Positions 16,331 through 35,236 of a stretch of DNA of 64,000 bases are shown piece after piece. The DNA is from Methanoregula sp. Its GTDB lineage: Archaea; Halobacteriota; Methanomicrobia; Methanomicrobiales; Methanospirillaceae. Numbering within the stretch: position 1 is the first letter of the stretch; the number at the start of each line of letters is the position of its first letter. The notes under the pieces were generated by a model, which searched no databases, was not told where the DNA came from, and was given only the letters and a program-made list of their open reading frames with translations. The stretch lies in assembly GCA_039698055.1 (NCBI GenBank), contig JBDKTL010000030.1, positions 41,862 to 105,861 on the forward strand, read 5' to 3'. The translations under genes were made by a program, and so were the position numbers.

Positions 16331-16565
16331 GGTCCTCCTCTGTTCATCTGAATTATGTGATGGGAAGGATTATTGGTTCTCTGGTCATGTGACCGAGCGT
16401 CTTCATCTTCCCTGATCAGCTGAGGGTAGATCGCCGCCCCGCTCCGCACGCTTCGTGCACCTGCGGCGCACTCGCACGTGCTACCCGGGCCGGCTTGAAT
16501 CTGACCAGAATGGCTTTAATGTTATAATAAAAAGCAAATTGAAGCAATCCGGAAACGGGTGACCG

Positions 16566-16937
16566 ATGAAAGAGCAAACCATTCAGTTATTCACCGAGAA
16601 GGAAGAAGAATTTGTCAACCTTCTCATTGAGATCGGCACAAAGAAGACCGTTGCACAAATGCTGGTATTTCTTGCAAATACTCCGACAGCAACATCACGG
16701 GATCTCGAACGCGGGACGGACCTGCGCCAGCCCGAAGTAAGCATAGCGATAAAATATCTGTCCGGGCAAGGCTGGATCAAAAGTGGTGAGGCCCCGTCCC
16801 AGCATAAAGGACGGCCACAGAAAATCTATTCCCTCGCTGTACCAATCAAACAAATTATTGCAGCCATTGAAAAAGCAAAGAAAGACGAGGCCACCGAACG
16901 TCTTGTTCTCGTTAAGAAAATACGAGATTATATCTGA
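16566..16937 (+). CDS. Archaeal wHTH transcriptional regulator (COG4738-like)
   Basis: SRDLERGTDLRQPEVSIAIKYL..QGWI...KGRPQKIYSL. Confidence 0.82.
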   Translation: MKEQTIQLFTEKEEEFVNLLIEIGTKKTVAQMLVFLANTPTATSRDLERGTDLRQPEVSIAIKYLSGQGWIKSGEAPSQHKGRPQKIYSLAVPIKQIIAAIEKAKKDEATERLVLVKKIRDYI

Positions 16938-17290
16938 ATATCCCAAAAATCCCGATTTTTGAAACCTCCGTCGGAGAAAAAGACCTTCATATTCGCGTTC
17001 TGGTGACCGTTTTGGGGCCCGGATAGGGTAAACTAGGTGGCAAAACCCGGCACGATTTAAGGGCCTTTGGTGGCTGTTATACGAGGCACAAATCAGCCGT
17101 ATTTTGGCAAACGGGGCAATTATAGGGCATATTCTCCACAGGAACTGAAAATATGGATAATCCGAGGTTTTCCGGTAGTGGCCCGGAGACGGGGGCAGGA
17201 AACGGAGCCCGTATAGGGCTTATTTCCCCTCAGGGTCCGGATCCCTCCATTTCAGGTCCTTCCGACGTGGATAAAAAGGGGAAAACTGGT

Positions 17291-17875
17291 TTACCCGCCC
17301 ATTCCCGTAATCAATCCGACAATCTGCTGAGCTATCACCGGGTCCAGGACCTGAGCCAGCACCAGCCCGGCCATCGAAATGAAGAAGGTCCAGAAGACTT
17401 TCTTCACCTGCTCGTTCTTCCCGAACGCCTCGATCGCGGCGTCCGTGTCCGCCTTCATGGCTTGCTGGATAAGCTTCGGCAGGAACACGAAGAGCGGCAG
17501 GAAAAGAACCGCAGCCCCGATGAACGCGAGCGTGATTTCTGCCCGGCCCGCCATATAGATCCCGACCGGGACTGCAAACACCCCGGCCAGGATCGCGGCC
17601 ATCCCGACCTCGCCGAACCAGAAGTAATGCCGCTTTTCAGCGTAGTTCAATCGCTCTGCATCCGTGAGTGAGGAGAGATCGAAGATGCCGATGGTGTTCA
17701 GCATCCCGTACCAGACTGCGTGCGTCTCCTCCGGGTCGGCAACGATGCCGAGGAAGAGGATTGCGACCGGCACCATGAGCAGGATGGGCGGCAGGTGCGC
17801 GAAGAGAAAAATGAGCGCGAGCAGGAGCCCGGTACCGCAGATGGCGGCCCGGGTCTGCACCTCGTTCTCAAACAT
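17291..17875 (-). CDS. Hypothetical multi-pass membrane protein
   Basis: GGAGG RBS before ATG 17875; several hydrophobic segments; overlaps upstream stop. Confidence 0.7.
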   Translation of the reverse strand: MFENEVQTRAAICGTGLLLALIFLFAHLPPILLMVPVAILFLGIVADPEETHAVWYGMLNTIGIFDLSSLTDAERLNYAEKRHYFWFGEVGMAAILAGVFAVPVGIYMAGRAEITLAFIGAAVLFLPLFVFLPKLIQQAMKADTDAAIEAFGKNEQVKKVFWTFFISMAGLVLAQVLDPVIAQQIVGLITGMGG

Positions 17876-18341
17876 CGCGGTCCTCCGCGATCCTGATCTC
17901 AAAGACCGGGCTGGTATATCCACCATTTGCCGGGCTGAAGTCCCGGACCCGGCCCATCTGCGCAAACTTGCGCCGGCCCGTGCGGATCTGGACTGTATGA
18001 ATGCCCGGGGCCCGGGGGAACACCCGCCGCCCGTCCACATCCCGCATGTCCATATACGGCGGGATGTCGAACCAGTCCGGCCAGAACCGGACCCCTCGCG
18101 GGATATCCGTTCCCCGGTACAGATCCTGCAAGCGCAGGGGCGACATGTTGTCGTAGATCACATCGATGATCAGGTTCTCATCATCCTGCTCCGGATGCAG
18201 GTCCAGCTCATAGAAAATCGGATTGCGCCGCACCTCGTCGCGGGTGAGCGGTTTATCCGGTGTGAGCGGTTCAAGACCGCCAAACTTTCCGCGATACAGG
18301 CCGGTCACTGTTGCGACCGGCTGCACGTTCTCATAAACCAT
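17868..18341 (-). CDS. Hypothetical protein (157 aa)
   Basis: AGGAGGAG RBS before ATG 18341; overlaps neighbours. Confidence 0.7.
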   Translation of the reverse strand: MVYENVQPVATVTGLYRGKFGGLEPLTPDKPLTRDEVRRNPIFYELDLHPEQDDENLIIDVIYDNMSPLRLQDLYRGTDIPRGVRFWPDWFDIPPYMDMRDVDGRRVFPRAPGIHTVQIRTGRRKFAQMGRVRDFSPANGGYTSPVFEIRIAEDRDV

Positions 18342-18495
18342 GATACTCCTCCTTGTAGCATTCGTGCTCGTCCCGGAGTTTCTTGAACTCCTCGACAATC
18401 TCATCATATTTGCCGATCTTCTGGTAGATGGCAAACAACATGGGATAGAGCGGAAGCACAGTTGCAAGCACTATCCCTAAAACTTCAATTTCCAT
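18331..18495 (-). CDS. 54-aa single-TM + coiled-coil protein (holin-like topology)
   Basis: MEIEVLGIVLATVLPLYPMLFAIYQKIGKYDEIVEEFKKLRDEH...; GGAGG RBS. Confidence 0.6.
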   Translation of the reverse strand: MEIEVLGIVLATVLPLYPMLFAIYQKIGKYDEIVEEFKKLRDEHECYKEEYHGL

Positions 18496-18498
18496 GGC

Positions 18499-18562
18499 GG
18501 TCCTCCGCAAAAGTGACGAGAGGACCAAAAAGAGAGGGGACCGGAGGTCTCCTCCCCTCCGG
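18499..18562 (-). promoter_or_regulatory. Terminator-like hairpin plus RBS-sequestering hairpin between the 167-aa and 54-aa genes
   Basis: CCGGAGG(18541-47)/CCTCCGG(18556-62) stem followed on - strand by a T5 run; GGTCCTC(18499-505)/GAGGACC(18520-26) stem covers the GGAGG RBS. Confidence 0.5.
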
Positions 18563-18582
18563 GTCGTTTCGTCAAAACGGTT

Positions 18583-19086
18583 CTAGGCGAGAGCTGCCAC
18601 AGTGTCCGCCCAGGTCTCCACATTCGTCCGGATTGCGTCATCCGAGTACGAAGTGATGGTGACCCGGTCGCGGCTGAAGTTCACCATGTAGATCTCACCG
18701 TTCGCGTCATGGCACCGCAGGGAGGCGCTGAATGCATCCTTCCCGAGATCGTGGACCACGGACCCGCCGTGAGCCGTGCTGACCGCAGCGGCAGCGAGCA
18801 GTGCAGTCACACCCGCATTGAACTTTGCCAGGGTGTCGAATTTGTGGCTGCCCGTGCCAACGGTCTTGGCATCGGTGTCCTGATAGACGAGTTTCGCGGT
18901 GTATGCCTCCTTGGTCTTCTCGACCGGGGGGTGGCTCTGACCTGCAGTCATATACGCTACACACTCAAAGGGATTGTCGGTGATGACCGACTGGACGATC
19001 GTGTTGAACGTCGCAACATCCACGATGGGTTCTGCAAGGGTGCGGGTCGCACTCTTGACATTTGCACTCTGTACGAAATCTGCCAT
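18583..19086 (-). CDS. 167-aa hypothetical protein with internal repeat; candidate structural protein
   Basis: GGGAGTGA RBS; Ala/Thr/Val-rich; internal similarity KEAYTAKLVYQDTDA / KDAFSASLRCHDANG. Confidence 0.75.
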   Translation of the reverse strand: MADFVQSANVKSATRTLAEPIVDVATFNTIVQSVITDNPFECVAYMTAGQSHPPVEKTKEAYTAKLVYQDTDAKTVGTGSHKFDTLAKFNAGVTALLAAAAVSTAHGGSVVHDLGKDAFSASLRCHDANGEIYMVNFSRDRVTITSYSDDAIRTNVETWADTVAALA

Positions 19087-19205
19087 TCTTCACTCCCGCC
19101 CTTGGGCCCTTGGGCTGAATAATACTCTATAGGACGGGGGGCTTAGGTTTTACTGAAGGGAAGGAGAAAGGAAACCTCAAGGCAATTTAGCCACATAATT
19201 GAATT

Positions 19206-20093
19206 GTGACAGAAATCATCAAAATGCAACATTACGTTCCAAGAGTATACCTGAGAAATTTTTCCTTTGACCAAAAATCAAACGATTATGCTATTTATTG
19301 TTTTGATAAAACCAATTCGAAGGCATTCCCCGTAAACATTTCAAATATTGCGTGTGAACGTTTCTTTTACGATATTGAAAACGACGAAGATCAGACCATC
19401 GAAAAATTACTCTGTAAATACGAAGGGGCGTATGCGGGAGTGTATAACAAGATTATCGAAAACTGGAATCTGAATTGTTTAAACAGCGATGAGAGGACAA
19501 TTCTGGCATTCTTTTTCTCAATCCAATATCTCCGGACGAAAGAACAACGGATCTCCTATCGTGACGTATTCAACTGTGTGAAAGACCGGTTAACCCAACA
19601 GTGTTCGAGCGAGTCGCTCAAAGAGGACCTTGAGGCATGCGGTCAGGAATCGGTATTGAAAGAAGGACATCTAACTGTTTTTATGAAGGCCGTTCCGGAA
19701 ATGGCGCAAAAATTGCTCACAATGAAATGGACATTATGTAAAAATACAACAACGATGCCGTTCTGGGCTTCGGATAACCCGATTGTGATGGATAACCATG
19801 CAGAAAATAAGTACGATCGCTATCTGGGGTATGCCTGCCCGGGAATAGAGATGTACCTTCCCTTAAATCCACAATATTGCCTCGCAATTTTTGATTCTGC
19901 GAAATATCATGTGCTGCCGGGCATCATGGAAACAAAAAGCATCGAGAATGTAATTTACAACAATTGTCTGCAACTCATGAACTCCACACGGTTCATTTTC
20001 TCAAATACCGAAGACTTTTCCTATGCCGAGAAATTCCTGGAGAAAAAACCTGAATACAAAAGTGTTGATCGGCAGAGGATCTTTCCTCCGTGA
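19206..20093 (+). CDS. DUF4238 domain protein
   Basis: QHYVPRVYLRNF N-terminus, IEKLL..YE, FWASDNP, YLPLNP motifs; AT-rich. Confidence 0.82.
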   Translation: MTEIIKMQHYVPRVYLRNFSFDQKSNDYAIYCFDKTNSKAFPVNISNIACERFFYDIENDEDQTIEKLLCKYEGAYAGVYNKIIENWNLNCLNSDERTILAFFFSIQYLRTKEQRISYRDVFNCVKDRLTQQCSSESLKEDLEACGQESVLKEGHLTVFMKAVPEMAQKLLTMKWTLCKNTTTMPFWASDNPIVMDNHAENKYDRYLGYACPGIEMYLPLNPQYCLAIFDSAKYHVLPGIMETKSIENVIYNNCLQLMNSTRFIFSNTEDFSYAEKFLEKKPEYKSVDRQRIFPP

Positions 20094-20099
20094 TACCCC

Positions 20100-20207
20100 T
20101 TACAGAGCATCCTCTTCATTTCGGATCTGGTCCTCGATGAACTTGCGGATCTCCTCTTTTCCCGGGAGCCCAAGCTGATACTTGGAGACAAACAACTGGT
20201 TGTCCAT
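20100..20207 (-). pseudogene. 3' remnant of a YhcG/DUF1016 PD-(D/E)XK nuclease gene
   Basis: Manual translation MDNQLFVSKYQLGLPGKEEIRKFIEDQIRNEEDAL*, resembling the YhcG C-terminal 'FVSKYQL.LP..EE' motif. Confidence 0.6.
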
Positions 20208-20421
20208 ACTTCTTCGTCCGCAGGTGATTCACTCATACAATCTCCAAAAACTCTGAGTATTATTAAAGACAGTGTATCGCAATTCGAATCAAATAATTTT
20301 GCGTAAACCATTATTATTTAGAGGATATCTCCTCCGTATGTCTCCAATTGGGAAGACCGGGGAAGGTACTCATTACATTTTAAAAGGGCGCCAAATGGGC
20401 TAAAGAGGCACAGAAGGAGTA

Positions 20422-20535
20422 TCATTGAGGTACCACCCATACAGCCCCTATCCCGGCAACCGCCATCTCGAATCGTTCCGGCCCATCCCCGAAATAGAAC
20501 CGTGCCGGTGAAAATATCGGTCCTGACTCATCCCC
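20422..20535 (-). pseudogene. 3' remnant of a second Dam-type methyltransferase gene (diverged direct repeat of ~22750-22862)
   Basis: Reads SGPIFSPARFYFGDGPERFEMAVAGIGAVWVVPQ* versus GPTFSPALFYVGDGPERFEKAFAEIGAVWGVPKV*; exact 19-mer CGTTCCGGCCCATCCCCGA at 20474 and 22799. Confidence 0.85.
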
Positions 20536-20582
20536 CTGATAAGGGCCTAAAAAAGGAGAGAAAAAGTTATAACAATAAGATA

Positions 20583-22505
20583 TTATTTGGGAAGTAAGAC
20601 ATTAATTTTTTGAAATAATGCAGCCGCCCTATCGATTGTGGCAACGTCGATTTTTTTGAGAAGATCGGATTGCTCATTCAGCAGAAAAACCGCTGGTAGA
20701 TAATGATTGAAATGGCCTCCCGAAATAGCTTGGAGTTTGAAGTATTCCTCGATTCTCTTGACAATCCGGGGATTTTGGTTTGTAAAGGATTTGAGGGTTA
20801 ATTTTTGAGATAATTCTTTAGGGTAAGCACCATTAACTAAATTCAAATAAAACTGGGGTTCGAATAAATCTTCAATATCGGCATCTTTTGCCCCGGTTAT
20901 CTCACCGATATTGATCAGATTTTTATTACCGAGGAAATGGTTCCCCTTTAAATTTTTTATCCGCTGTTTATCTCGTTCTGAAATATCTATCAAAACGGCG
21001 ATGTTCAATTCATTCGCTCCCAGTAATGATACGAATGTTGAAACCTTATCTGCCCCACCAACGGGGGTCACTACCCAGCGGGGATCCAGACCATTTTTCC
21101 CATGGCTGATTACAGCCTCACTTAAAATCTTCAGATAAATCAAATCTGATGGGCCTTCTACGAGAAGACAATTGGGACCAATAAACAAAGTTTGGGCAAG
21201 ATCATATCCAAGTGCCGCCTGAAGAGGGAATATTGTATCTTGATCATTTCGTAATATATCCTCACTAATTTTTGTTCCTTTTTCATCCACATCTTGAACA
21301 GTCCTGACGCTGGTCAATGCATTTGGATCGATCATGAACGGTGAATGGGTTGTATATATCACCTGATGTTTCGGGGCAAGACGTTCATCGATAAACCTGA
21401 GAAAGTCCCCTTGAGCTTTTGCATGCAGATTTAATCCAGGTTCATCTAGCAAAAGGATCAAATCTGCGTCACTTCGCTCGATTTGGGAGAAATATGCAAA
21501 GAATGAGAAAAACCAGATAAATCCCCGTGATCTTTCATCAAAAGGCACAGTAACCCGGTGACGGTTGTTCTTAATTCTTACGTGGAGGATAGGACCATTA
21601 TTCAACGGGGGCGGATCGTTTGGATTTGCCTGGGAGATATCGAACTCCACTTCAAGCTGTTTGTTCTGAGTCCAGTATTCAAATACCTGATCGGAGATAC
21701 TGATTGATGCGGCTTCTAATTCCGCTTTCAGACGTTCATAATTTGTTACACTCTCAAAATCCTCAAGTTTGTTATCAGAAAGTGATAACAGCGCTAAGAA
21801 GGTCCGATCTGCTTCATCAGTTTGATTTTGATCTCGCCGCGTTTTGAGGAAAGGAATTGAAATACGTCCTTTCATTGTGCAATAATCATCAAAATACACA
21901 AATTTTGGAATAAATTTTGTGAGAAATTCATTGATAATATACTCATTCAGCCCTTTTGGAAATCGGGAATTAACTGTGGTCAAAAGAGTATTGGCCACGA
22001 CTTGGCTTTCTTTATTCTTTTCAAGGAGTTCTTTAAATTCGTCGAGTGTCTCAATATTCGTAGCCTGTTTTTTTACGTCGTCCAACAATTCAGATGTGAT
22101 TAGCATATGCTGGACTGCTGTCTTCTCATCTGTTTGTAAACTCCACACACGGGAATTTTTGAAATTTTTAGTCACTTTTACAATATTGGATTTTAAAGCA
22201 TTTTTTCCAAGGACAGATTCAATTTTATCAATTTCCTCTTTTAAAAGTTCAAATTCAGCAATTACAACCACAGCGGGAGTTTTATCATGAATTTGTTTGT
22301 ACCTTGTATATCCTTTTCTTGGATAGTCCATGATATCGAAATTTCCATTTGCACCCTCAACAGGACTTAATTTTTGTAAAGCCTGAAGAAACGCAGTTTT
22401 ACCGGACTCGTTTTTACCGACAAGGCATGTGACCGTATCAATTTTTACGGGGTCTGAATCATCAATACTCTTAAAATTTTGTACATGAGCGGTGATTAAT
22501 TTCAT
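20583..22505 (-). CDS. OLD-family ATP-dependent endonuclease (ABC ATPase + TOPRIM)
   Basis: NFKSI..., LVGKNESGKT Walker A, RSRGF signature, LLLDEPG Walker B, YTTHSP, LLVEGPSD TOPRIM, DIEDLF. Confidence 0.88.
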   Translation of the reverse strand: MKLITAHVQNFKSIDDSDPVKIDTVTCLVGKNESGKTAFLQALQKLSPVEGANGNFDIMDYPRKGYTRYKQIHDKTPAVVVIAEFELLKEEIDKIESVLGKNALKSNIVKVTKNFKNSRVWSLQTDEKTAVQHMLITSELLDDVKKQATNIETLDEFKELLEKNKESQVVANTLLTTVNSRFPKGLNEYIINEFLTKFIPKFVYFDDYCTMKGRISIPFLKTRRDQNQTDEADRTFLALLSLSDNKLEDFESVTNYERLKAELEAASISISDQVFEYWTQNKQLEVEFDISQANPNDPPPLNNGPILHVRIKNNRHRVTVPFDERSRGFIWFFSFFAYFSQIERSDADLILLLDEPGLNLHAKAQGDFLRFIDERLAPKHQVIYTTHSPFMIDPNALTSVRTVQDVDEKGTKISEDILRNDQDTIFPLQAALGYDLAQTLFIGPNCLLVEGPSDLIYLKILSEAVISHGKNGLDPRWVVTPVGGADKVSTFVSLLGANELNIAVLIDISERDKQRIKNLKGNHFLGNKNLINIGEITGAKDADIEDLFEPQFYLNLVNGAYPKELSQKLTLKSFTNQNPRIVKRIEEYFKLQAISGGHFNHYLPAVFLLNEQSDLLKKIDVATIDRAAALFQKINVLLPK

Positions 22506-22743
22506 AATCATTCCTCTTGTTTGATCGGCGACTGATCAAGATCTGATTACTATTCCTCTATCTGTTGTCATTTATAAACGATATGGGATATGATGCGTTA
22601 TCATTGTGATATATTTTTAGTATTCGGTTCACAATGTGAAAATAACAAAAGGGTATTTTTTCGATTATAATTTTTTAGAATTCTGAAAAGAATCGTTTCT
22701 GGAAGAATGTTATGAGGTGAAAATTTCATTTCTCAGCATCTAT

Positions 22744-23259
22744 TCAGACTTTCGGCACACCCCAAACCGCCCCGATCTCAGCAAACGCCTTCTCGAACCG
22801 TTCCGGCCCATCCCCGACATAGAACAGTGCCGGTGAAAACGTCGGACCGGGACCCTCATCACCAGCAGGCCCCACAAACCGGATCCTCGCAGAAGGAAAA
22901 CATACCCGGCACGATATCGCCGTCAGCGTCTTCCATGCAGCAGTCTCGGTCGCCGATTTCCACAGTACAATCGCCTCCGTGGTCCGGCCTGCGGACCGCT
23001 CCAGATATAATTTCGAGAACCACTGCTCGACACCGGGCCCGAACGGGGGATTAAGAAACACCCGTCCCGACCAGGGCTGCACGAGCCCGTTGTCCTGAGC
23101 TGTGTAATGCCTCGCTGCCGGCACGTTCGGGATCTCCCGGCAGTTGCTGGCCGGGTCCAGATCGATTGCGCCCATGCACGCGATCACTGCATCGAGGATG
23201 TACTGCGGCGTGTAATGCTCCGTGCTCTCGTGCGAAAGAAGGGCTGGAGGGACGGTCAT
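22744..23259 (-). CDS. Phage-type DNA N6-adenine methyltransferase (Dam family)
   Basis: EHYTP, IDLDPAS, DNGL..PW.GRVFLNPPF catalytic motif. Confidence 0.88.
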   Translation of the reverse strand: MTVPPALLSHESTEHYTPQYILDAVIACMGAIDLDPASNCREIPNVPAARHYTAQDNGLVQPWSGRVFLNPPFGPGVEQWFSKLYLERSAGRTTEAIVLWKSATETAAWKTLTAISCRVCFPSARIRFVGPAGDEGPGPTFSPALFYVGDGPERFEKAFAEIGAVWGVPKV

Positions 23260-23469
23260 ATGATGAGATGATGTGTAAAATCACCGGCTTAGTCTTTACT
23301 GAAGACCGGGACGCAGGACGGGGACACAGAAATCGCACATAATATTAAAAAGCATATTTACATCCGCCACTCAATATCTCTTATTCATCTCAGCAAAATC
23401 CTCTGACTCCCGGGTGAGGATAAGCACGATTATGACAACGATAACGACGACAACAAGCAGGACAACAAC

Positions 23470-24915: not shown

Positions 24916-24955
24916 GACGGTTTCTTTCAACCAGCAACTGAAGATCGGGAAAAAT

Positions 24956-25078
24956 ATGGGACAATTATGAGACATATGAGACATGTGTGATATATGAGAC
25001 AAGTATGGGACATATGAGACATGCATCAAACAAAATCCCCGTGGGGGAATGGGGCCATAAAGGGGCCTAAGGGGCCAA
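24956..25078. repeat. Degenerate 9-bp tandem repeats (ATGAGACAT x7, then GGGGCC-containing x3)
   Basis: Units at 24956, 24967, 24976, 24985, 24994, 25005 and 25014; second array 25049-25078. Confidence 0.75.
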
Positions 25079-25179
25079 GATTCAATAGATATTACCCCGA
25101 AATTGAGGGATTGAATCGATGATTTTCAGTTTCACGCCACAGGACATTCATTTAATGACCATGTGAACCGGACGATCTA

Positions 25180-26910: not shown

Positions 26911-26919
26911 TTTTTCCAC

Positions 26920-29900
26920 TCATACTAAACCCACTTTCCGTGCATCATCCCGCACGCCTCTCCCGTAACAATGCTCGCAGAGCTTCACGCCCATCTCGCG
27001 ATCCAGCCACACCGCCTTCGCAATCCCGCAGACCGAGCACTTCCCGATATCCGCCGTCACCCGGCTGCACCGGGAGATCTCCACGGCCCCGGGCAGCGGG
27101 ACCGATGCGGTCTGTTCCGTTTTTACTGCCTCGTTGAAACATGAGCGGCAGATCCGTCGGGCCTCCTGCTGGTCCCTGGGCCGGGCCCGGCGCTCTTTGG
27201 TATATTTTTCAATATACCGGGAGCCTTTCTTTCCGCAGGCATAGCACGGTGTCTTCGGCTCCGGGATCTCGAGTTTTTTGTAATCACCGGCCCTGATGGA
27301 CCGGGGCGGATCCTTGTTTACAGCAGGGGGTGGGGAATCCGGGCTCGTTTCAGCAGTTTTACAGCATGTGCTGTAAGAGCCCGGGGAGACCGGTGGGGCC
27401 GGATTCGGCTTTTGAACCGCTCCGGTCAGAGATCGTTTTTTATTTACAGCATTTTCAGAATCATGAAGACACTGATCTGTATCTTTTCCGGAATTTTGAC
27501 CGTCTCCATAATTCCGGTTTTGCTGTAAATGACCATCCTTTAGTACAGAATTATTTGTACAATCATCTTCTTTGCAGGAACCGGGCGCACCGGGTTTACC
27601 ATTTTGATTTACAGCAGTTGCTGTAAAACTGCTGTAAACGTGCTGTAATGCTGTAAATGAACCTGCGCCGCCATCCTCATCGCTGTCCTTCGGGTCATGA
27701 TCGAGCCAGCAGGCCCCGCCGTTCGCCCACTGCCGGAAGATCTCGCGGCTCCACGTAAATGCCTCGGTCCTGCGCCGGACTGAAACGCCCTCTTCATCAT
27801 TTATCGTCACCGTCCGGTCCGTGAACGAGAGGGCCGGGCACTTCTCCAGCAGCCCGGTGTAATTCTTCCCCCGGCTGTCGTAGCCTTTGATCATCCGGTA
27901 AATGCCCATGTAGGACCCGCCTGTGAATCGCTGGAGGTCCTGGATAGTGAACTCCGGTTGGTCGGCCTTCTCGATGATGGCGAGCAGGTCAGACTCTTTC
28001 TTCGTCATCTTTGATTCCTGCCCGCCCGCGGTCCCGTTCAGGAGCGTGAAGACATCGTTCGCGGCCGAGAAGTCGGCCTCATTCGCGTACACGCAGAGCG
28101 TCCCGTCCTCGCTCGTCTTCTGCTGCCGCTGCATGAAGAAAAGGGCTGCGTGGCTTTTGATCAGGTCGTAGAGCATGTCGGGGTTGCGCCGGTTGCAGAT
28201 GGCGTTGAACCGGATCCGCTTCGAGTAGGGGATGATCACCCAGATCATCTGCTCGTGCAGGATCTCCCAGATTGCCCTGCAGGTCCTCAGCTCATCTGTC
28301 TCTTCAACGAACAGGTCCGGGTCCAGCATCTCGCGGGCCTGCTTCGCCTCAAGTACCCGGGCGTCTTGCTCAGCTGACTCATCGATCCAGCAGGTCAGCA
28401 TCCGGTTCATCACCTGATCATCGCCAGTCCCTTCCTTCTTCGCAATCCACCAGACGCACCGCTCGGGGATCGTGCAGACCCGCGAAGTCAGGTCCTTCGT
28501 GACCGTCGTGTGCGTAATCGGTTCGTGAAAGTTCGAGGTCGCGGATTTCAGGATCTCCTGAATGCCGTCCGAGAGTTCGGTGTCGTCGCTCATCAGGACC
28601 GTGCGAGGCCGGAGGTCTTTCATGTAATAGAGCGCCTTGTTGCTCACCGTGCCTTTCACCTTGTACGCATCCGGCACCTGGCGCATCATCTTCCGGAAGG
28701 CATGGGTCTTGCCCTTGCCAGAATCACCGGTCACGGAGACATGCAGCCCGTCCGAATTCTTCACGGCTTGTGATGCCATTGAGAGGACCATGCACCGGGC
28801 TACGATCTCGTCGCCAACATGCTCCTGGGCGAAGGTCCGGAGCATCAGGGCCACCGGGTCGCCATGTTCGAGCACATCGAGGGCCGCTGCCCGGTTGTCG
28901 GGTGAGCCCGCAACCGGGGCCGAGCATGGGTCGGTTCTCCCTTCTTGCTCAACCTTTGCCCGGGCCCGGTCCTTCCGGGCGGTCTGCTGTTTTTGCTCCC
29001 AGCCCTTCCGCTTCGTAGCCCGGTCCGGCTCATACCGCTCGCGGAGCTCCTGCCAGCGCTGCGTACCGCCTCCGCAGGACGTGTGCTTGCAACCGGCGAA
29101 GACTGCGCCGTTCCCGAACTGGATCGCAAAGCCCCCGTCCTTGTGCGCTGACGAGAACGGGCACTGGTCGAAGATGAAGAGTGTGCCGCCGCTGTACGGC
29201 TTCTCGGTCCTGACATCGAGGCCGTGGTCTGCGAGCCAGTGGCGCAGGTCGAAGCCCTTGCCATTCACCGTTGCCGGCTGCGGCTGTGCGTGCTGTTCGG
29301 TCGGCAGCCGGGCCGCGAGATCCCTGAGCTGTTCCGCTGTCGCAATCTTCAGCTCATCCGGGGCCGAGATGATGCGGCTCCTCCGGTACGGACGTTCCGG
29401 GGTGTTGTCACCCTTCCGCGATATCGTACCGTAGAGTTTCCAGATGCGGGCCGCGTTGAAGTTCGCAGTATCCACGTTCACCCGCTCATCTGAGAAGAGC
29501 GTGTCGAGCGTTGCGAGGCAAGCCTTCACGAGTGCTGTTGCTGCTTCATCGTTCGGCAGATCGATGCGGTACAGAAGGTGGGCCCCGTTGCCGGAGTCGG
29601 CCCGGACCGGTTCCGGGAAACCTAGCCCGGCCATCCACCGGGCAATCTCTTCGGCTTTTGCCAGGGCCAGCCCGTGCTCCTCATCAGTACTCGACACACC
29701 ACTCGGTCGCAGCGGGTCGATGTCGATCGGCAGCCAGCGGCGGCGCAGGATATCCGCATCGCTCGTCGTGCTGTCCTTCTTGCCGAGCCGCATCTTGATC
29801 CGGTTCGCCCGGCGCGAGAGCAGGGCCGGGTTCACCTCGTTCAGCGTGACGTAGATGCCGTGTACTGAACTGTCTGTATCCAGCGGCTCAACGGCCTTGA

Positions 29901-30021
29901 TGAGCGCAGCATGATCACTGAAGTAGCCGCTGTGGGTGAACTGGTCGGTGAGTGCCCGGACCTCGACGACCTGCCAGGGCCCGGCTAATCGGGCAACGGC
30001 ATCACGGAGCAGACCATCCAC
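26920..30021 (-). CDS. Replication protein: AEP primase-polymerase + P-loop NTPase/helicase + C-terminal Zn fingers
   Basis: IDIDP (motif I), DSGNGAH (motif II), VDTANFNAARIWKLYGT (motif III); CPF..H...CKH..C Zn motif; GDSGKGKT Walker A, LMSDD Walker B; CYAC..CRSC and CSVC..CEHC. Confidence 0.85.
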   Translation of the reverse strand: MDGLLRDAVARLAGPWQVVEVRALTDQFTHSGYFSDHAALIKAVEPLDTDSSVHGIYVTLNEVNPALLSRRANRIKMRLGKKDSTTSDADILRRRWLPIDIDPLRPSGVSSTDEEHGLALAKAEEIARWMAGLGFPEPVRADSGNGAHLLYRIDLPNDEAATALVKACLATLDTLFSDERVNVDTANFNAARIWKLYGTISRKGDNTPERPYRRSRIISAPDELKIATAEQLRDLAARLPTEQHAQPQPATVNGKGFDLRHWLADHGLDVRTEKPYSGGTLFIFDQCPFSSAHKDGGFAIQFGNGAVFAGCKHTSCGGGTQRWQELRERYEPDRATKRKGWEQKQQTARKDRARAKVEQEGRTDPCSAPVAGSPDNRAAALDVLEHGDPVALMLRTFAQEHVGDEIVARCMVLSMASQAVKNSDGLHVSVTGDSGKGKTHAFRKMMRQVPDAYKVKGTVSNKALYYMKDLRPRTVLMSDDTELSDGIQEILKSATSNFHEPITHTTVTKDLTSRVCTIPERCVWWIAKKEGTGDDQVMNRMLTCWIDESAEQDARVLEAKQAREMLDPDLFVEETDELRTCRAIWEILHEQMIWVIIPYSKRIRFNAICNRRNPDMLYDLIKSHAALFFMQRQQKTSEDGTLCVYANEADFSAANDVFTLLNGTAGGQESKMTKKESDLLAIIEKADQPEFTIQDLQRFTGGSYMGIYRMIKGYDSRGKNYTGLLEKCPALSFTDRTVTINDEEGVSVRRRTEAFTWSREIFRQWANGGACWLDHDPKDSDEDGGAGSFTALQHVYSSFTATAVNQNGKPGAPGSCKEDDCTNNSVLKDGHLQQNRNYGDGQNSGKDTDQCLHDSENAVNKKRSLTGAVQKPNPAPPVSPGSYSTCCKTAETSPDSPPPAVNKDPPRSIRAGDYKKLEIPEPKTPCYACGKKGSRYIEKYTKERRARPRDQQEARRICRSCFNEAVKTEQTASVPLPGAVEISRCSRVTADIGKCSVCGIAKAVWLDREMGVKLCEHCYGRGVRDDARKVGLV
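27317..27657. repeat. Iteron-like cluster: 10 copies of TGCTGTAA in both orientations, candidate replication origin
   Basis: Reverse copies near 27317, 27358, 27443 and 27608; forward copies at 27369, 27521, 27619, 27630, 27641 and 27649. Confidence 0.8.
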
Positions 30022-30071
30022 ACGTCACCACCCGGGTCCCTGCTCTGGTCTGCGGTGAAAAAATTACCAGG

Positions 30072-30311
30072 TCAGCCATGCCCGTCGCCTTCTTCCGGGG
30101 CAGGCTCCTCCTGCCTCACTCGCTCCGCGTGCTCATCGAAGGTCTCGACCTTCACGGTATAGCGGTGATGGAATTTTCGCTCGACAAAGATGTGAAAGAC
30201 CGATTCGCCCTTCTTCTTGATCAGGTCCGCGATTGCTTTCGGGATCAGGTAGAGCGGGATGCCATCGACTTTTTCAGTCATGACTGCCGGCTTCTTCTCC
30301 TCAGTGGGCAT
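30072..30311 (-). CDS. Small hypothetical protein
   Basis: Overlaps upstream gene, GAGGTGG RBS; part of the coupled operon. Confidence 0.7.
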   Translation of the reverse strand: MPTEEKKPAVMTEKVDGIPLYLIPKAIADLIKKKGESVFHIFVERKFHHRYTVKVETFDEHAERVRQEEPAPEEGDGHG

Positions 30312-30672
30312 AGGCAGCCACCTCGCGGATCTCGTCCGGCAATATCTCGTAACAGTGGAGGGAGCCGTTGGGCGAACTCACCCAGAGCTCGCAACGGATG
30401 AAGATGTTGCCCGGGTACCGGGTCAACAGCGAGCGGAACTGGCAGATCTCGAACCTGCAGAGCGATTCAACGTACGGGATGTTCAGGGCACCGGTCGCGG
30501 TCCGGAGTTTGACACCCAGGATCTCGTAATCGCCCCGCAACCCGACAAGATGAAGCGGGATGTACTCTGCAAGAAAACTGCTCCCTACCGGCAGAACCGG
30601 CTCGTAGCCCCGGGAGACGAGGAGTTCCAAACCCCGCTGCCGGGAGGCGGACCGGGCGCTCTGCGCCATCAT
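30301..30672 (-). CDS. Degenerate Hjc-like PD-(D/E)XK-fold protein, paralogue 3
   Basis: LELLVSRGYEP...IPLHLVG...GVKLR...ELWV...YEILPDEIREV. Confidence 0.65.
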   Translation of the reverse strand: MMAQSARSASRQRGLELLVSRGYEPVLPVGSSFLAEYIPLHLVGLRGDYEILGVKLRTATGALNIPYVESLCRFEICQFRSLLTRYPGNIFIRCELWVSSPNGSLHCYEILPDEIREVAAYAH

Positions 30673-31085
30673 ACAGCACCCCCATCACCACCGGCGTTTT
30701 GCCCGCGACACAGGATCTCCCGGATACCGTCGCGGGTAATTTCGAACTGCTGGAACTGCCGTGAGGGAATCGAGATCCAGACTTCGAACCGGGAAGCCAG
30801 AAGGCCGGAAGGAAGCTGTAAAAAGAATTTCTTCATCCGCCCCATCTCATCCCGGCAGAACTCCTCGGCATCACTCAGCGAGACAAGGGGACGAAGGGAG
30901 ATCTTCAGTTTCACCATCACATTGTCAATGGTCCCATCGTCCAGTTCCTTGCGTGCGGTCAGGTTGTAGGGGATGTACCGCGAAGTCCGGACAATGTCGC
31001 TGACTATCATCGGCTCGTAGCCCAGGCTGAGCAGGATGTTTCCCGCCTGTTGCTCCAGAACATGGAAGCGGTGGACGGCACTCAT
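30669..31085 (-). CDS. Degenerate Hjc-like PD-(D/E)XK-fold protein, paralogue 2
   Basis: EQQAGNILLSLGYEP...IPYNLTA...MVKLK...EVWI...FEITRDGIREI; ATGA overlaps. Confidence 0.65.
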   Translation of the reverse strand: MSAVHRFHVLEQQAGNILLSLGYEPMIVSDIVRTSRYIPYNLTARKELDDGTIDNVMVKLKISLRPLVSLSDAEEFCRDEMGRMKKFFLQLPSGLLASRFEVWISIPSRQFQQFEITRDGIREILCRGQNAGGDGGAV

Positions 31086-31486
31086 GCCGCACCCCCGGAG
31101 TGCGATGCTACGGATCGGTACAGCGAGCGTTTCGGGATCTCCCGGATGCTGTCCCTCATGACCTCGAAGCACCGGAATCCGTAGGTCAGCGAGTAGATCC
31201 AGATCTCGTAATGATACCCGGCTTCCCCGATGTGGCGGGCGATGTGCTTGCGGAACTGCGAAAGGTCAATGCCGCATTTCTGCATGACCATATCGACCGT
31301 TGAGGGGAGATGGGAGAATTTACGGATGCGGATGAACCGTTTCTCGCCGGAATCCCGCTCCGCGACAAGGTGGGCCGGCGGCTGGTTCTTGTTGAAACCG
31401 GGCGGGATGACCTGGACCCGGTAACCATGCAGCCTGAGGAGCTCGCGGGCCCCGTCCTCGATGAGCGTTCCGCGACGGCTGGTCAT
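31082..31486 (-). CDS. Degenerate Hjc-like PD-(D/E)XK-fold protein, paralogue 1
   Basis: RRGTLIEDGARELLRLHGYRV...PAHLVAE...FIRIR...EIWI...FEVMRDSIREI. Confidence 0.65.
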   Translation of the reverse strand: MTSRRGTLIEDGARELLRLHGYRVQVIPPGFNKNQPPAHLVAERDSGEKRFIRIRKFSHLPSTVDMVMQKCGIDLSQFRKHIARHIGEAGYHYEIWIYSLTYGFRCFEVMRDSIREIPKRSLYRSVASHSGGAA

Positions 31487-31851
31487 GATGCAGCACCTCC
31501 CTTGTGCGGCGTAAGTATTTCCGGTTCCGGTACATCTCCCGGGACCTCGAAGAGAATGCAGGAGACGTCTTCGCCGAGCGCAACCGCGATGAACCGGTCG
31601 CGGGGGAGCATGTACCGGACACTGCCGACCGAGATAATGACGGCCCGGCCCGAGGGATTGAGGGAAACCAAGCCGGATGCGACCGGGTTACCGGACGGGT
31701 CCGGGTTTTTCTGCAGCAGGGGGATGGTCTCTCCGACAAACAGTAGCATCCCCATATCTTCTGGGCGGATGAAATACGATTTGTCCCAGATCCGGATGTG
31801 GACATAGCCGTCGCTCCCGGTCAGCACGATACCGGCGGAGAAATGGCTCAT
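31483..31851 (-). CDS. Hypothetical protein
   Basis: GGAGG RBS; ATGA overlap with downstream gene. Confidence 0.7.
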   Translation of the reverse strand: MSHFSAGIVLTGSDGYVHIRIWDKSYFIRPEDMGMLLFVGETIPLLQKNPDPSGNPVASGLVSLNPSGRAVIISVGSVRYMLPRDRFIAVALGEDVSCILFEVPGDVPEPEILTPHKGGAAS

Positions 31852-31966
31852 ACTGATCCTCCCGCCAGCCTGCCTCCTTCAGTGAGGAATTTAAAGATGG
31901 AAATAGAAGTATCTATGGCAGTCTCACGGCGTGACTGGGTAAGTTTTGTTTGTGAGCTGCCACTGG

Positions 31967-32122
31967 TTATTGCGTGCATGATACCTCCTCTTTTGTGACG
32001 ATCTTCCAGCGCCCGTGTTCAACCATCTTCTTCCCGATGCCATAGAAGCCGGACCGCTTCTCGTAGGCTTCCACGGCTTCCTGCGTTACCCGCAGGGGTT
32101 CGCGATTTATTGTGTTCTGCAT
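31967..32122 (-). CDS. 51-aa small protein (not in ORF track)
   Basis: GGTGA RBS; MQNTINREPLRVTQEAVEAYEKRSGFYGIGKKMVEHGRWKIVTKEEVSCTQ*. Confidence 0.5.
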   Translation of the reverse strand: MQNTINREPLRVTQEAVEAYEKRSGFYGIGKKMVEHGRWKIVTKEEVSCTQ

Positions 32123-32827
32123 GTTTTCACCGACTTTGTTAAGTTGTGTTCAGCCACATTCCCCAATTGTTGAAACGTTCTTTTTCCCTCGTGTCACGCA
32201 AAGCAACGGCTATCATCCGGTCAGATGCCACTCTCCTCGAAACGGCAGGTGGCCTATCGGATCAAAGCAATAAGCGGATCACGGTTAACGATTGCCTGAA
32301 ATCTACAGACTATCACCAAAAAAAGTAAAGAGCGAGAATATCGGGGAGTGGTTGCCTGTCAGCCGGCAGCACTGGCCCGTGTTCTTCTTACATCCTTTTC
32401 CGGACGCCAAGCTGTTCATCCTGACCCGGCTCTTTTGCAATGCAACCGGTTCGGGCCGACGGATCAGGGCCGTGATCTTCGTCGTGATCGAAGCCACTGC
32501 GGTCTTTATCCGGCTGCCCGCCTTTTGGAGGAAGTCCAACAGCATTGTAATTGTTTTATAAATTCGCAGTTGTTTAAAGTGTTTTCTGAACCAGCGGGTT
32601 ACATGGGCGCTTTTTGTCGTACACGTGTAACACAATTGGCAGATTTTACTGCACCAGAATGCCAAGCGCGGCTGGAATTATTGAGAAATGGAAAAGCAAT
32701 ACTTTGAATTTTTCAGTCAAGTACCAGAGGGTGCGGGAGGTGCCGCAAATTTTGTGAAGTCATTAATGCGAGTGGATGGCAAGTAGAAAGGTAAAAACGG
32801 ATATATATCGAAGGGATAATTTTAGAT

Positions 32828-33793
32828 ATGGTCTTTGGGAAGAATTTTTTGAAGTCTATTACTTCATTCTTTCCAGATCGAGAAAAAGTTCTTGAAGAGA
32901 TTGAAGATTTGAAGGTAACTTGCGAACTTGAAACGGCGAAGATCGGGTTCGGTTTTTTGTTTATTGTTGTTTCAGCATACGGGCTTCATAATTTGGTTAC
33001 TCCAATAATCCCAGAAATGCCATCCTGGGGTTTTACATTACTCTTTTCATTACTTTTCAGCTTGTTGATGTTTGGTCTTAATTTAACGATCAATGGATTA
33101 ACTTCGAACGCTGCCAGAAACAAAAAATTCCAAGATGGAGTAAATAGAAAATTAGAGGCTTTAATCTCAAGAGGAACTCCACCAGAGAATATCCAAGAAG
33201 CTGAGGAAACTATGACTTCCCAAGAGAAAAGTAACAAATTTGGTGAGACACTCATAAAAATAGGATTTGCAGTTTTCATAGTAGTTTATATCATTTGGTT
33301 TGTCTGGACAATGAGCCAGCATTCGAATGATTCGCAATATATTACAACGGCCATTCTTGCAATTCCAACATTAGTTGTTGCAGTGGTCACGTACATGTAC
33401 GTTTTATTGACAAGGGATCTTGTAAAAATTAACCAAGATCTTGTCAATGCCCAAAAACAGCCAATATTTTCACTTGATATTGAAAATAGGGAAGGATGCC
33501 GTGTTGTTAACCTGTGGAATACCGGAGAAGTCGCAAGAAATGTTACGATTATCTTTACTGCCAATTGGGATTTTCAACAGCCTTCAATTAATCTCCTCTC
33601 TCTGAAGCGAGATTCGCAATGTGAATTATTGGATAATATAAGTCAAATTTTAGGCAATGGTCATATTTGGACGGTAACGGTTGACTATGAAAACATTTTC
33701 TCGCAACATTTCCATGAAGTTTTCCCACTATCTAATGAGAAGTTGCAATCTCTGGGAACCACTCGAATAATAATACCTGGTGGAGTGCTATAA
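32828..33793 (+). CDS. AT-rich hypothetical membrane protein (about 4 TM + soluble C-terminal domain)
   Basis: 321-aa ORF, hydrophobic segments, low GC, TATA-like GATATATAT upstream. Confidence 0.7.
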   Translation: MVFGKNFLKSITSFFPDREKVLEEIEDLKVTCELETAKIGFGFLFIVVSAYGLHNLVTPIIPEMPSWGFTLLFSLLFSLLMFGLNLTINGLTSNAARNKKFQDGVNRKLEALISRGTPPENIQEAEETMTSQEKSNKFGETLIKIGFAVFIVVYIIWFVWTMSQHSNDSQYITTAILAIPTLVVAVVTYMYVLLTRDLVKINQDLVNAQKQPIFSLDIENREGCRVVNLWNTGEVARNVTIIFTANWDFQQPSINLLSLKRDSQCELLDNISQILGNGHIWTVTVDYENIFSQHFHEVFPLSNEKLQSLGTTRIIIPGGVL

Positions 33794-33823
33794 GAGGTTG
33801 AATTTCATCGTCGAGCAACTAGG

Positions 33824-33858
33824 TTATGGGGGAATTCGTATAACCCCCCGTAAAAAAA
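33824..33858. terminator. Inverted repeat and A/T run between convergent genes
   Basis: TTATGGGGG...CCCCCGTAA followed by an A-run next to the integrase stop. Confidence 0.45.
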
Positions 33859-35091
33859 TTATAATTCCCCTTTCCTCTTCATCTCCGCAATCCTTTCATC
33901 AATCAGCTGCCGCAGAATATCCGGGTTGTCCCTGAGGACGCTCTGCTGGATTCCCTCATCGGTATCGATCACAACATCGGAAAGATGCTGGCCGCACGAG
34001 AAACAGTAGTTTGAGGTGGGAGGATTGATCTTCCGGCAGTGCGGGCACTGGATCGGTTCCAGCCGTGATGTTGCATTTCCGTTATCCACGACAGTTATCC
34101 CGTAGGATTTGAGCATCGCAGAATCGATATCCTGCCCGGTGAGATGGGCGTAGGTCCGGAACATATCGGTGCTGATGTTGCCCCACATCATGAGCTTGAT
34201 CACGCTTTCCGGTACTTGTTCCTTGATGAGATGCGTGATACGGCTGTGCCGGAAGATGTGGGGTGTGACATGTTTCTCAATGCCCGCATGCCTGGCAATA
34301 ACCTTGAGATGCTTGTTGATGGTCGCATGGATGAGAGGTTTGCCATGCACGTTCACGAAGACCAGCGCGTTCCCGCTCGGGTCCGGTTTGTAGCAGGCCC
34401 GCCACTGTGCCAGGTATTCGTTTGCCATTATGAGCCGGACGTACCGGGGCATGTTGGTCTTGAAGTTCACGTTCGCAATGACACCGTATTTATCGAACGT
34501 GAGATCGCCCCAGGTCATGGTCCCGATCTCGCCAATGCGGAACCCTCCTTCGTACAGCGTCATGATGAGAGCCCGTTCCACGGGGCGGGTGCACGCTTTG
34601 ATCATCGCGGTGATCTCGTCCGGTGTCAGCAAGTCGGCGGCCACCTTGGTCATAGGATCCTTGGCGGGTATCCGGAGTTTGCGGAGCTTGGTCTCGCTGA
34701 GATCTGAATACTTGTTCTCAATCATCCAGAGGTAGAACTGTTTGAGGATGGCAACGAAATCGCTGATCGTGTTCTGCTTGAATGGGCGCTCACGGCTGCT
34801 CTTTGCATTTCTCAATTCTGGAATCGCGGCGTAGAGATCACCGATGGTGTTGCTTGAAAACGGCCCGATGAACCGGCGCCAGCCCACGAGAGTAAACGTG
34901 AGTTTGTTCGCCCGCCCGGTGCTGATGTTCTTGCAGGACCGGAGTTCCGAGACGAATTCCCGGATCTGGGCAGCGTCAGCCTGGGTGAGGGTGAATTTCT
35001 CAAGGGCGTGCCTGATTGAATTTTCTGCCAGTTCATTCCTCATTGGATGGAAAGTACTGGCTGGAAGTACTTGAGCGACTGGGTAAGTCAT
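33859..35091 (-). CDS. Tyrosine recombinase/integrase with C-terminal Zn ribbon
   Basis: YEGGFRIGEI (R), KT (K), HIFRHSRIT (HxxR), MMWG (W for H), TYAHL (Y); CPHC...CFSC. Confidence 0.93.
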   Translation of the reverse strand: MTYPVAQVLPASTFHPMRNELAENSIRHALEKFTLTQADAAQIREFVSELRSCKNISTGRANKLTFTLVGWRRFIGPFSSNTIGDLYAAIPELRNAKSSRERPFKQNTISDFVAILKQFYLWMIENKYSDLSETKLRKLRIPAKDPMTKVAADLLTPDEITAMIKACTRPVERALIMTLYEGGFRIGEIGTMTWGDLTFDKYGVIANVNFKTNMPRYVRLIMANEYLAQWRACYKPDPSGNALVFVNVHGKPLIHATINKHLKVIARHAGIEKHVTPHIFRHSRITHLIKEQVPESVIKLMMWGNISTDMFRTYAHLTGQDIDSAMLKSYGITVVDNGNATSRLEPIQCPHCRKINPPTSNYCFSCGQHLSDVVIDTDEGIQQSVLRDNPDILRQLIDERIAEMKRKGEL

Positions 35092-35153
35092 AGAAAAGTT
35101 TCTGAAATAATGGCTTTAAAAAGGAAACTGAAGCATCGAACTTCGCGTCCAGA

Positions 35154-35236
35154 TGCGAGAAGCAGGAGTCGAACCTGCGAACCCCTACGGGAACGGATCT
35201 TGAGTCCGCCTCTGTTGGCCACTTAGATATTCTCGC
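35154..35236 (-). tRNA. tRNA-Leu (CAA)
   Basis: Reverse complement GCGAGAATATCTAAGTGGCCAACAGAGGCGGACTCAAGATCCGTTCCCGTAGGGGTTCGCAGGTTCGACTCCTGCTTCTCGCA: acceptor stem, CAA anticodon, long variable arm, GTTCGA T-loop. Confidence 0.95.

Follow-up and report, generated by a model that had tools for sequence, protein, structure and literature searches.

A tRNA-Leu-integrated element of Methanoregula with a predicted primase-type replication protein and iteron-like repeats inside its gene

A 64,000-nucleotide stretch of Methanoregula sp. contig JBDKTL010000030.1 (the window) carries an integrated element of 18,652 bp (window positions 16502-35153), which abuts the 3' end of a tRNA-Leu(CAA) gene and encodes a tyrosine integrase and a large predicted replication protein, here called Rep. 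An intact integrative replicon, combining integration with iteron-driven, primase-initiated replication, is a well-supported reading of this DNA. Beyond this, we think it probable that this is an integrative plasmid-like element, here in its integrated form, that replicates by itself, is not conjugative and borrows its transfer. Relatives are common. A large protein collection holds 2002 relatives of Rep at E ≤ 0.001, and of 301 Methanomicrobiales genomes sampled, a profile search detected Rep in 182 (142 of the 208 of high quality, and 33 of 43 genera); one genome encodes five full-length Reps. A first-pass annotation of the same DNA had proposed a real integrative element of a recurrent family, and this proposal stands: across 25 loci with Rep relatives, which were fetched and compared (counts below use the loci with enough flanking sequence), Rep, a set of early genes, the integrase and a left-arm gene module recur together.

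The ends of the element were placed where likeness to two relatives integrated at other tRNA genes (loci L004 and L005) stops. At the right boundary this likeness begins immediately after the last base of the tRNA gene (TCTGGA...), and at the left boundary it ends at CATTCTGGTC (16502-16512, plus strand), the element's own left-end sequence being TGACCAGAATG; the two junctions have just the 5-nt word TCTGG in common. The target gene (35154-35236, minus strand), identified by ARAGORN and matched by the Rfam tRNA model at 52.8 bits, is intact and is the sole tRNA gene in the window. Rfam matches nothing else in the window, and in 16200-17200 nothing at E ≤ 1. Host genes stand on either side, with thi4 and thiN on the left (14897-16330) and the gene for the large subunit of DNA polymerase D on the right (35411-39319). 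The tRNA-Leu sites of relatives offered no matching empty site, because thiN and thi4 do not adjoin tRNA-Leu in four of them. Close to the two ends lies the 11-nt word AATGGCTTTAA, at 16509-16519 (plus strand) and again as a direct repeat at 35109-35119; this is the sole exact match of at least 11 nt between the ends, both copies are followed by TGAAGCA, and the role of the word may be that of an arm site or part of a promoter.

The first-pass annotation had set the left edge of the element at 16424. We place it at about 16502, since the DNA from about 16380 to 16497 is a separate repeat of about 110 nt, which abuts the element's left end upstream of thiN. Three copies of this repeat are present in the genome itself, at 90-92% identity (the others at C30:41225-41400 and C16:53741-53880), and one in the relative G009, at 83%; one copy adjoins an ArdC-like gene just outside the window. 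On the minus strand the repeat folds to -44.5 kcal/mol (z -2.3), and it has no Rfam match.

Near-identical copies of the element occur in 19 public sequencing runs, from a run listing that spans 11 studies, and assembled (Logan) contigs of three runs (X6, X13 and X15) were compared with the window over 15800-35700. In X6, a 10.4-kb contig tracks the element as far as position 35171, which lies 18 nt inside the tRNA gene, counted from its 3' end, and then diverges; beyond this point it starts with TGACCGGAAG, which resembles the left end TGACCAGAATG. As a lead, this junction suggests an 18-nt core and a second, tandem element in that strain. The junction does not represent a circle of the window's element, and the contig continues into unlike sequence.

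Rep and the repeats within its gene

Rep (1033 amino acids; 26920-30021, minus strand) appears to be laid out as an archaeo-eukaryotic primase (AEP) domain (residues 1-345), a P-loop nucleoside triphosphatase (NTPase), a variable linker and C-terminal zinc fingers. The full protein has no match in Pfam, in NCBIfam or among PDB sequences, and sequence and profile searches of the PDB with Rep, with its N-terminus and with the left-arm protein p167 (see below) gave no meaningful match. An AlphaFold (AF2) model of residues 1-345 was compared by structure; built from 17 sequences, it has a predicted local distance difference test score (pLDDT) of 77.7. When searched against the PDB with Foldseek, all five of its matches at E ≤ 0.001 were AEP enzymes, namely mycobacterial Prim-PolC (6sa0 and 6sa1), the LigD polymerase domain (2iry), RSF1010 RepB' (3h20) and the cyanophage S-2L PrimPol (6zp9, template-modelling (TM) score 0.61 on the target), and the next ranks were likewise AEPs, including a CRISPR-associated Prim-Pol and archaeal and eukaryotic PriS. 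DxD and SGNGAH motifs are invariant across the 17 sequences, and a language-model atlas points to the RepB_primase and BT4734-like clusters. The model thus supports an AEP primase fold for the N-terminus of Rep. Taken alone, this domain shares 41% identity with a protein of a Bacteroides phage and 47% with the product of a Methanomethylovorans plasmid gene; in virus records Rep matches through the primase domain only, in two records of bacterial viruses.

The remainder of the protein was read from its sequence. A Walker A motif (GDSGKGKT) and four C-terminal CxxC pairs are invariant in the alignment, and residues 374-727 share 23-24% identity with the Rep of archaeal plasmids of 4.4-4.9 kb (E 3e-11 to 3e-10). 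Among relatives of Rep, some have a precomputed AAA_22 match, the precomputed Pfam label is PF27228, and one from Methanospirillum bears the UniRef title 'SF3 helicase domain-containing protein'; Reps of this kind are encoded by isolates of Methanospirillum and Methanoregula. No whole-length relative was found in the virus or plasmid collections searched.

Within the linker-coding stretch of rep, the least conserved part of the gene, lies a cluster of short repeats that we consider a candidate replication origin (27317-27657). Eight exact copies of TTTACAGCA, in both orientations, are packed into 341 bp, where 0.23 would be expected per 64-kb window, and none of 100 shuffles reached nine. The first-pass description of an AEP primase-NTPase with internal iteron-like repeats agrees with the predicted fold, the Walker A motif and this eightfold repeat. 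The arrangement extends to relatives, since 11 of 14 Reps have 6-11 copies of an 8-mer at the same place (nucleotides ~2350-2720 of rep), in five different words: TGCTGTAA in the window's element, L003 and L007; TGCTGAAA in L004, L008 and L019; TGCAGCAA in L005 and L013; TGCTGCAA in L011 and L024; and ATGCACAT in L022. By 8-mer count, L016, L025 and a second element of the same genome, on contig C16, have no clear array. Because the array is kept while its word changes, the repeats look like iterons of distinct replicon specificities, and the divergence of the words together with the retention of the array therefore points to selection on replication. Multiple short repeats, specific to the Rep and placed at the origin, are what an iteron-type replicon would be expected to carry, and the array agrees with this.

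Conserved arms and variable cargo

The integrase gene (33859-35091, minus strand) is intact and encodes 410 amino acids (PF00589, E 3e-25). Its product is XerA-like at 91 bits, far under the 220-bit equivalog cut-off, and matches to a C-terminal zinc ribbon are weak and under their cut-offs. In L001, L004, L005 and L014, as here, the gene adjoins the 3' end of the tRNA, and the protein is 84-85% identical in L004, at tRNA-Leu(CAG), and in L005, at tRNA-Leu(GAG); altogether, related elements sit at tRNA-Leu genes with the anticodons CAA, CAG and GAG and at tRNA-Thr. The first-pass annotation had made co-occurrence of Rep, integrase and left-arm genes the measure of a family; they do recur together, and yet the integrase is not universal, with a related one lying within 10 kb at 5 of 14 loci and none in L007, where host ABC-transporter genes abut the early genes. 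In L024, a 443-amino-acid open reading frame (ORF; L024:4999-6330) without Pfam family occupies the integrase's place between tRNA-Leu(CAA) and the early genes, and may be a very divergent recombinase. In L004, a 102-nt unit, repeated in tandem at least 11 times (L004:5531-6952), separates integrase and early genes.

The early genes form a coupled operon on the minus strand (30072-31851), made up of e122 (31483-31851), the three early paralogs e134 (31082-31486), e138 (30669-31085) and e123 (30301-30672), and e79 (30072-30311), with stops and starts that overlap at 31483/31486, 31082/31085, 30669/30672 and 30301/30311. The paralogs share about 23-29% identity with one another. The middle one starts at 31085, which gives a protein of 138 amino acids and not 167. 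None of the operon's genes has a family in Pfam, PHROGs or NCBIfam, and a PDB profile search with the paralogs (123-138 amino acids) returned spurious ankyrin matches only, with no conserved acidic catalytic pattern. Among relatives, e79 stands directly upstream of Rep at 18 of 21 loci, and the paralog trio and e122 are each present at 12 of 19.

At the far end of the element is a module of four genes on the minus strand (17291-19086), encoding p167 (18583-19086; 167 amino acids), the single-pass membrane protein p54 (18331-18495), p157 (17868-18341) and the multi-pass membrane protein p194 (17291-17875). The same gene order is found in L005, L007, L013, L016 and on the genome's own contig C16, and the proteins have no family in Pfam, NCBIfam, PHROGs or PADLOC. 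Beyond the module lies a gene for a MarR-type winged-helix regulator (MarR_2) of 123 amino acids (16566-16937, plus strand; PF12802, E 5e-7, 30.2 bits with a cut-off of 27), which is 70% identical in L005, 65% in the C16 element and 52% in L008. The first-pass annotation was right that a four-gene module and a winged-helix regulator are present; the long plus-strand ORFs at 17153-17671 and 17664-18386 are shadow frames of the actual, minus-strand genes.

The second element of the genome (C16:21857-41400) lies beside tRNA-Gln(TTG) and is a mosaic relative to that of the window, with an integrase of 52% and a Rep of 49% identity, a methyltransferase of 82% and, within the module, p167 of 78% and p157 of 87%; these uneven identities point to module exchange.

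The module protein p167 has a wider distribution than the element. Its 1264 relatives fall into 419 clusters when grouped at 50% identity, and of the 120 that were listed most have a length of exactly 167 amino acids. Of 301 Methanomicrobiales genomes, 253 have p167, and a single genome can hold as many as 13 matches. In a phylum-wide sample it was detected in 35 of the 37 genomes from the order and was absent from all 213 from other families. Some copies are broken or partial. Its AF2 model is confident (pLDDT 93.9) and has no match at E ≤ 0.001 in the PDB or BFVD, where the listed TM scores never exceed 0.36 and weak CYTH-like structural matches have TM scores of at most 0.34. An atlas search gave as its only match an archaeal cluster without a name (0.79), and there was no match in 50,697 virus records and none in plasmid records. 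The genome under study encodes seven full-length p167 proteins and two Reps, and the copies on contigs C9, C10, C12 and C35 stand among host-like genes. Given seven copies to two Reps, some of them in host-like surroundings, p167 is not a private marker of the element; it is an order-restricted, multi-copy orphan, which the first-pass annotation had proposed, with Rep, as a query for homologous loci.

Most solo copies of p167 lack p157 and p194. Behind the solo gene on C9, C10 and C35 comes a small ORF for a single-pass membrane protein of a second type, which is lacking on C12, and p167 copies have in common a purine-rich leader and a TATA-like box. In L004, 97 nt comprising the region upstream of p167 and the first 20 bases of its coding sequence occur in two identical copies (L004:20836-20932 and 22571-22668, 1.7 kb apart), as though the start of p167 had been duplicated or had received an insertion.

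By its position, p167 is nevertheless strongly linked to the element. It lies within 10 kb downstream of Rep at 5 of 14 loci with enough flank and, in further loci, 15.5-23 kb downstream on the same strand at four of five; among the matches listed, at least 29 hand-collated pairs have p167 downstream of Rep on the same strand, 1-23 kb apart. The exceptions are G103 and G031, with distances of 37 and 30 kb, G032 and G044, where p167 is upstream and on the other strand, and L025, which has no copy nearby.

Between these conserved arms lie two AT-rich hot spots, which hold many defence genes and differ in content among near-identical strains. Defence-like genes cover 19206-26910. Hot spot 1 (19160-22754, GC content 0.41) holds a DUF4238 gene (19206-20093, plus strand; Pfam, with a weak PADLOC match) and an OLD/AriA/GajA-like ATPase-TOPRIM gene (20583-22511, minus strand; Pfam and PADLOC). 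The latter is bracketed by a 95-nt direct repeat, in which a methyltransferase 3' fragment (20429-20523) is 83% identical to 22754-22848, within the semi-conserved gene for a Dam-like orphan DNA methyltransferase of 171 amino acids (22744-23259, minus strand; PF05869, E 2.2e-8; PADLOC oMTase). This methyltransferase is 83-92% identical in nine loci, and in L005 p167 comes directly after it. Further cargo fills the interval between methyltransferase and Rep (23260-26919, with a GC content of 0.38-0.41 at 25-27 kb): on the plus strand, a DUF4062/HATPase_c_4 gene (23470-24915; Pfam), a gene without assigned family (25180-25971) and a HEPN gene (26050-26910; Pfam, and PADLOC PDC-M34B at E 3.7e-37). 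PADLOC also gave PNTD-like matches, of the kind associated with prokaryotic Argonautes (pAgo), in the window's cargo. Tandem Repeats Finder detected six tandem copies of TATGAGACA (24954-25022) after the DUF4062 gene and before the gene pair that ends in the HEPN protein; the array may serve in regulation or be another iteron-like site.

Hot spot 2 (31965-33855, GC content 0.39-0.46) separates the early operon from the integrase. It contains a conserved small ORF of ambiguous frame (32303-32665, minus strand) and an AT-rich membrane gene (32828-33793, plus strand) within a kilobase of 39% GC, which among the 25 loci occurs in L001 only.

The runs show these hot spots changing. In X6, where the element and its left junction are present, 19160-22754 is exactly swapped for 7476 other letters; the right border of the swap is the methyltransferase stop, and one copy of the 95-nt repeat marks it. 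X15 has no depth over ~19.8-22.4 kb and an equal-length diverged block at 23506-24652, and one contig of X13 skips 31964-33856, including the AT-rich membrane gene. Among relatives, 50 ORFs of at least 150 amino acids from downstream of Rep at nine loci were scanned (at four of these the first 10 kb only, and some intervals may run past the element), and they include parts of type I, II and IV restriction systems, a Kiwa KwaB-like gene, mad2, DUF499 and SNF2 helicases. The defence-like hot spot noted in the first pass is therefore a feature of the Rep-to-module region in relatives too.

Comparable systems and competing explanations

Small integrated elements of this general kind have been reported before. 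Makarova et al. 2014 (Extremophiles 18:877, PMC4158269) describe elements that encode an arCOG07809 protein (Mpal_2033 in Methanosphaerula palustris is one) with primase, helicase, helix-turn-helix (HTH) and zinc-finger domains; in their account, these elements are linked to small Holliday junction resolvase (HJR)-like PD-DExK nuclease genes (arCOG09441) and to integrases with identified sites, and are hypothesised to represent 'a novel integrated satellite virus'. The element studied here likewise has a Rep with an N-terminal AEP prim-pol domain and an integrase with an integration site. As far as that account goes, it also shares with them a Methanomicrobiales host, small accompanying genes, a lack of capsid genes and a satellite or plasmid-like interpretation, and its large Rep may join the primase to helicase/ATPase, HTH and zinc-finger parts as theirs does. 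The account differs in calling the helicase superfamily 1, where the UniRef title of the Rep relative has SF3. It is a sketch, in which we found no mention of in-rep iterons, changes of iteron word, two hot spots, the p167 module or prevalence. Hence the family that the first-pass annotation called undescribed had very probably been outlined in PMC4158269, and what that outline leaves unmentioned, to the extent that we know it, is the iterons, the hot spots and the p167 module. The portion of Kazlauskas et al. 2018 (PMC5862659) available to us mentions no Methanomicrobiales case. A full-text literature search for arCOG07809 found no further paper, and one on provirus, integrase and primase in Methanoregula or Methanomicrobiales found nothing specific.

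P4-like satellites and phage-inducible chromosomal islands (PICIs) have a terminal integrase, a self-encoded primase-helicase replicon and a defence-loaded variable hot spot in 10-20 kb. The element has the same layout and size range, with its integrase at one end, and the parallel drawn in the first pass is fair in functional terms, because in relatives, too, the interval from Rep to the module is a hot spot of defence genes. It differs in that we recognised no helper-exploitation genes, in proteins that are unrelated beyond the integrase and AEP folds, and in its archaeal host; we know of no helper virus for it. Sulfolobus plasmids and satellites of the pRN1/pSSVx/pSSVi group, some of which integrate at tRNA genes and travel in helper virus particles, similarly possess a fused Rep (ORF904-type prim-pol) in which AEP primase-polymerase, helicase and DNA-binding parts are joined. 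Their Rep is assigned to a different arCOG in PMC4158269. None of the five plasmid records matched by our Rep at E ≤ 1e-3 is of this type, and the gene sets differ. Two 4.4-kb Methanothermobacter plasmids (NC_014409.1 and NC_002125.1), which we take to be pME2001-type plasmids, align with Rep 374-727 (23-24%, E ~1e-10), but are tiny, have no integrase and have a Rep without the primase domain. Integrative plasmids of the pT26-2/pTN3 type have a core that includes membrane proteins of unassigned role and no conjugation genes, and one of them has vesicle transfer. Judged from descriptions and not from sequence, they resemble the element in being archaeal, in integrating at tRNA genes and in having a conserved core (Thermococcales and Methanococcales; PMC6972569), and differ in the type of replication protein.

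No terminase, portal, capsid, VirB4/VirD4 or relaxase was found in Pfam and PHROGs scans of the tested ORFs, in keeping with the first-pass statement that none, including an HK97 capsid, could be recognised; relaxases and VirB4/VirD4-type ATPases were absent from Pfam scans of 20 ORFs, and Pfam and PHROGs gave no major capsid protein and no packaging ATPase or terminase of known virus families. Genes for hijacking a helper's capsid or packaging were likewise not found through Pfam, PHROGs and NCBIfam among the scanned ORFs, where proteins without a family could hide such functions. Pattern scans of IMG/VR with Rep and with p167, which reach close relatives only, were empty, and a crude scan of the genome's own assembly for CRISPR arrays found none. 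A 19.2-kb contig with integrase and Rep (L044) has no terminal overlap and no tRNA.

In the integrative-plasmid reading that we favour, the integrase would excise the element and re-insert the circle at tRNA 3' ends. The C-terminal DNA-binding part of Rep would bind the element's own iterons, where Rep would open the DNA and prime synthesis; and because each Rep would bind its own iterons, co-resident elements with different iterons would not interfere. The small early proteins and the MarR protein may set the switch, the defence cargo would repay the host for carriage, and p167, p54, p157 and p194 would have a membrane-associated function, for transfer or exclusion. Since no capsid, packaging or mating genes are recognisable, spread would have to borrow a helper virus, vesicles or cell contact. 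Several points tell against this account. A direct repeat of the tRNA 3' end was sought at the far end of the element and is absent. Assembled contigs of the three runs, which drop rare forms, contain no circular junction or back-joint, and in X6, whose dominant strain is that of the window, depth is 26.9 on the element and 27-30 on the flank (X13 and X15 are strain mixtures, whose uneven summed depths carry little weight for copy number); neither a circular junction nor, in X6, raised coverage, for both of which the first-pass annotation had suggested looking, was seen. The helicase, HTH and iteron-binding roles of Rep are inferred from motifs read by eye and from analogy, and the element very probably belongs to the arCOG07809 family by architecture and host clade, matched without alignment, with Mpal_2033 not among the 120 listed relatives in either Rep search. 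Finally, p167, which also stands solo in host-like settings, need not serve the element, and many copies may be immobile, because a related integrase is missing near many relatives, certainly in L007.

The element could instead be a satellite virus, self-replicating and packaged or delivered by an unseen Methanomicrobiales helper in the manner of P4, PICIs and pSSVx/pSSVi. Its P4/PICI-like order of integrase, primase-helicase and defence hot spot, its small size (18.65 kb) and the lack of structural and packaging genes would all suit such a life, which was indeed proposed for arCOG07809 elements (PMC4158269). We nevertheless consider it unlikely, as no helper is known or seen, no candidate for capsid remodelling, a small terminase or a packaging signal was recognised, IMG/VR pattern scans gave no close relative of Rep or p167, virus records match Rep by its primase domain only (two bacterial-virus records) and p167 not at all, and depth does not rise, being equal to that of the flank in X6 and uneven in X13 and X15. 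The opposite extreme, in which a decayed element is kept as a tRNA-borne defence island and has become immobile, would account for the chromosomal depth in X6, for the missing attachment repeat, for the many relatives without a nearby related integrase and for the defence-like cargo. It is difficult to reconcile with core genes that are all intact, including the 1033-amino-acid Rep and the 410-amino-acid integrase, with closely related elements at four different tRNA genes, with iteron words that have diverged while the array was kept and with a genome that holds five full-length Reps, and we regard it as very unlikely.

A further alternative would make the element a complete temperate virus of a new kind, with p167, p54, p157 and p194 as its particle, a soluble major protein together with membrane proteins, comparable to the particles of enveloped or spindle-type viruses of archaea. 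It would explain why, apart from Rep, no block is as constant as the module, with order and strand kept, why most of the 120 listed p167 relatives have the same length of 167 amino acids, why a confident fold behind a purine-rich leader and a TATA-like box goes unmatched in PDB and BFVD, why two of the four module proteins are membrane proteins and why genomes hold scattered p167 genes, broken or partial, as they would if these were left over from proviruses. Yet the genome has seven p167 genes to two Reps, several of them solo among host genes, most solo copies come without p157 and p194, no gene was recognised as a packaging ATPase, virus collections have no match, and there is no sign of induction or excess depth; on balance this explanation seems to us quite improbable. 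We entertain with similar reserve the broader and doubtful idea that the module forms the particle or vesicle of an unseen archaeal virus or transfer agent, of which arCOG07809 elements would be the proviruses. Were it true, proviruses or their remnants, numbering from one to a dozen, would be present in most Methanomicrobiales genomes, and the capsid protein of their family would have a new fold.

The element family and Methanomicrobiales

Methanomicrobiales are major producers of methane in peat, sediments and digesters, and to our knowledge almost nothing is known of their mobile DNA. The element belongs to a family that is present in about 60% of the sampled genomes of the order, often in multiple copies. 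Restriction, OLD/Gabija-like, HEPN, Kiwa-like and Argonaute-associated-type genes occur in its swap-prone hot spots, and it is therefore probably a main vehicle for the exchange of immune genes among these archaea. The family is very probably one already sighted by Makarova et al. 2014 but, as far as their account is known to us, never worked out. Its in-rep iteron array with element-specific words offers a testable model of replicon specificity in archaea, and p167, order-wide, multi-copy and with a fold that is unmatched, is a target for learning how such elements leave the cell.

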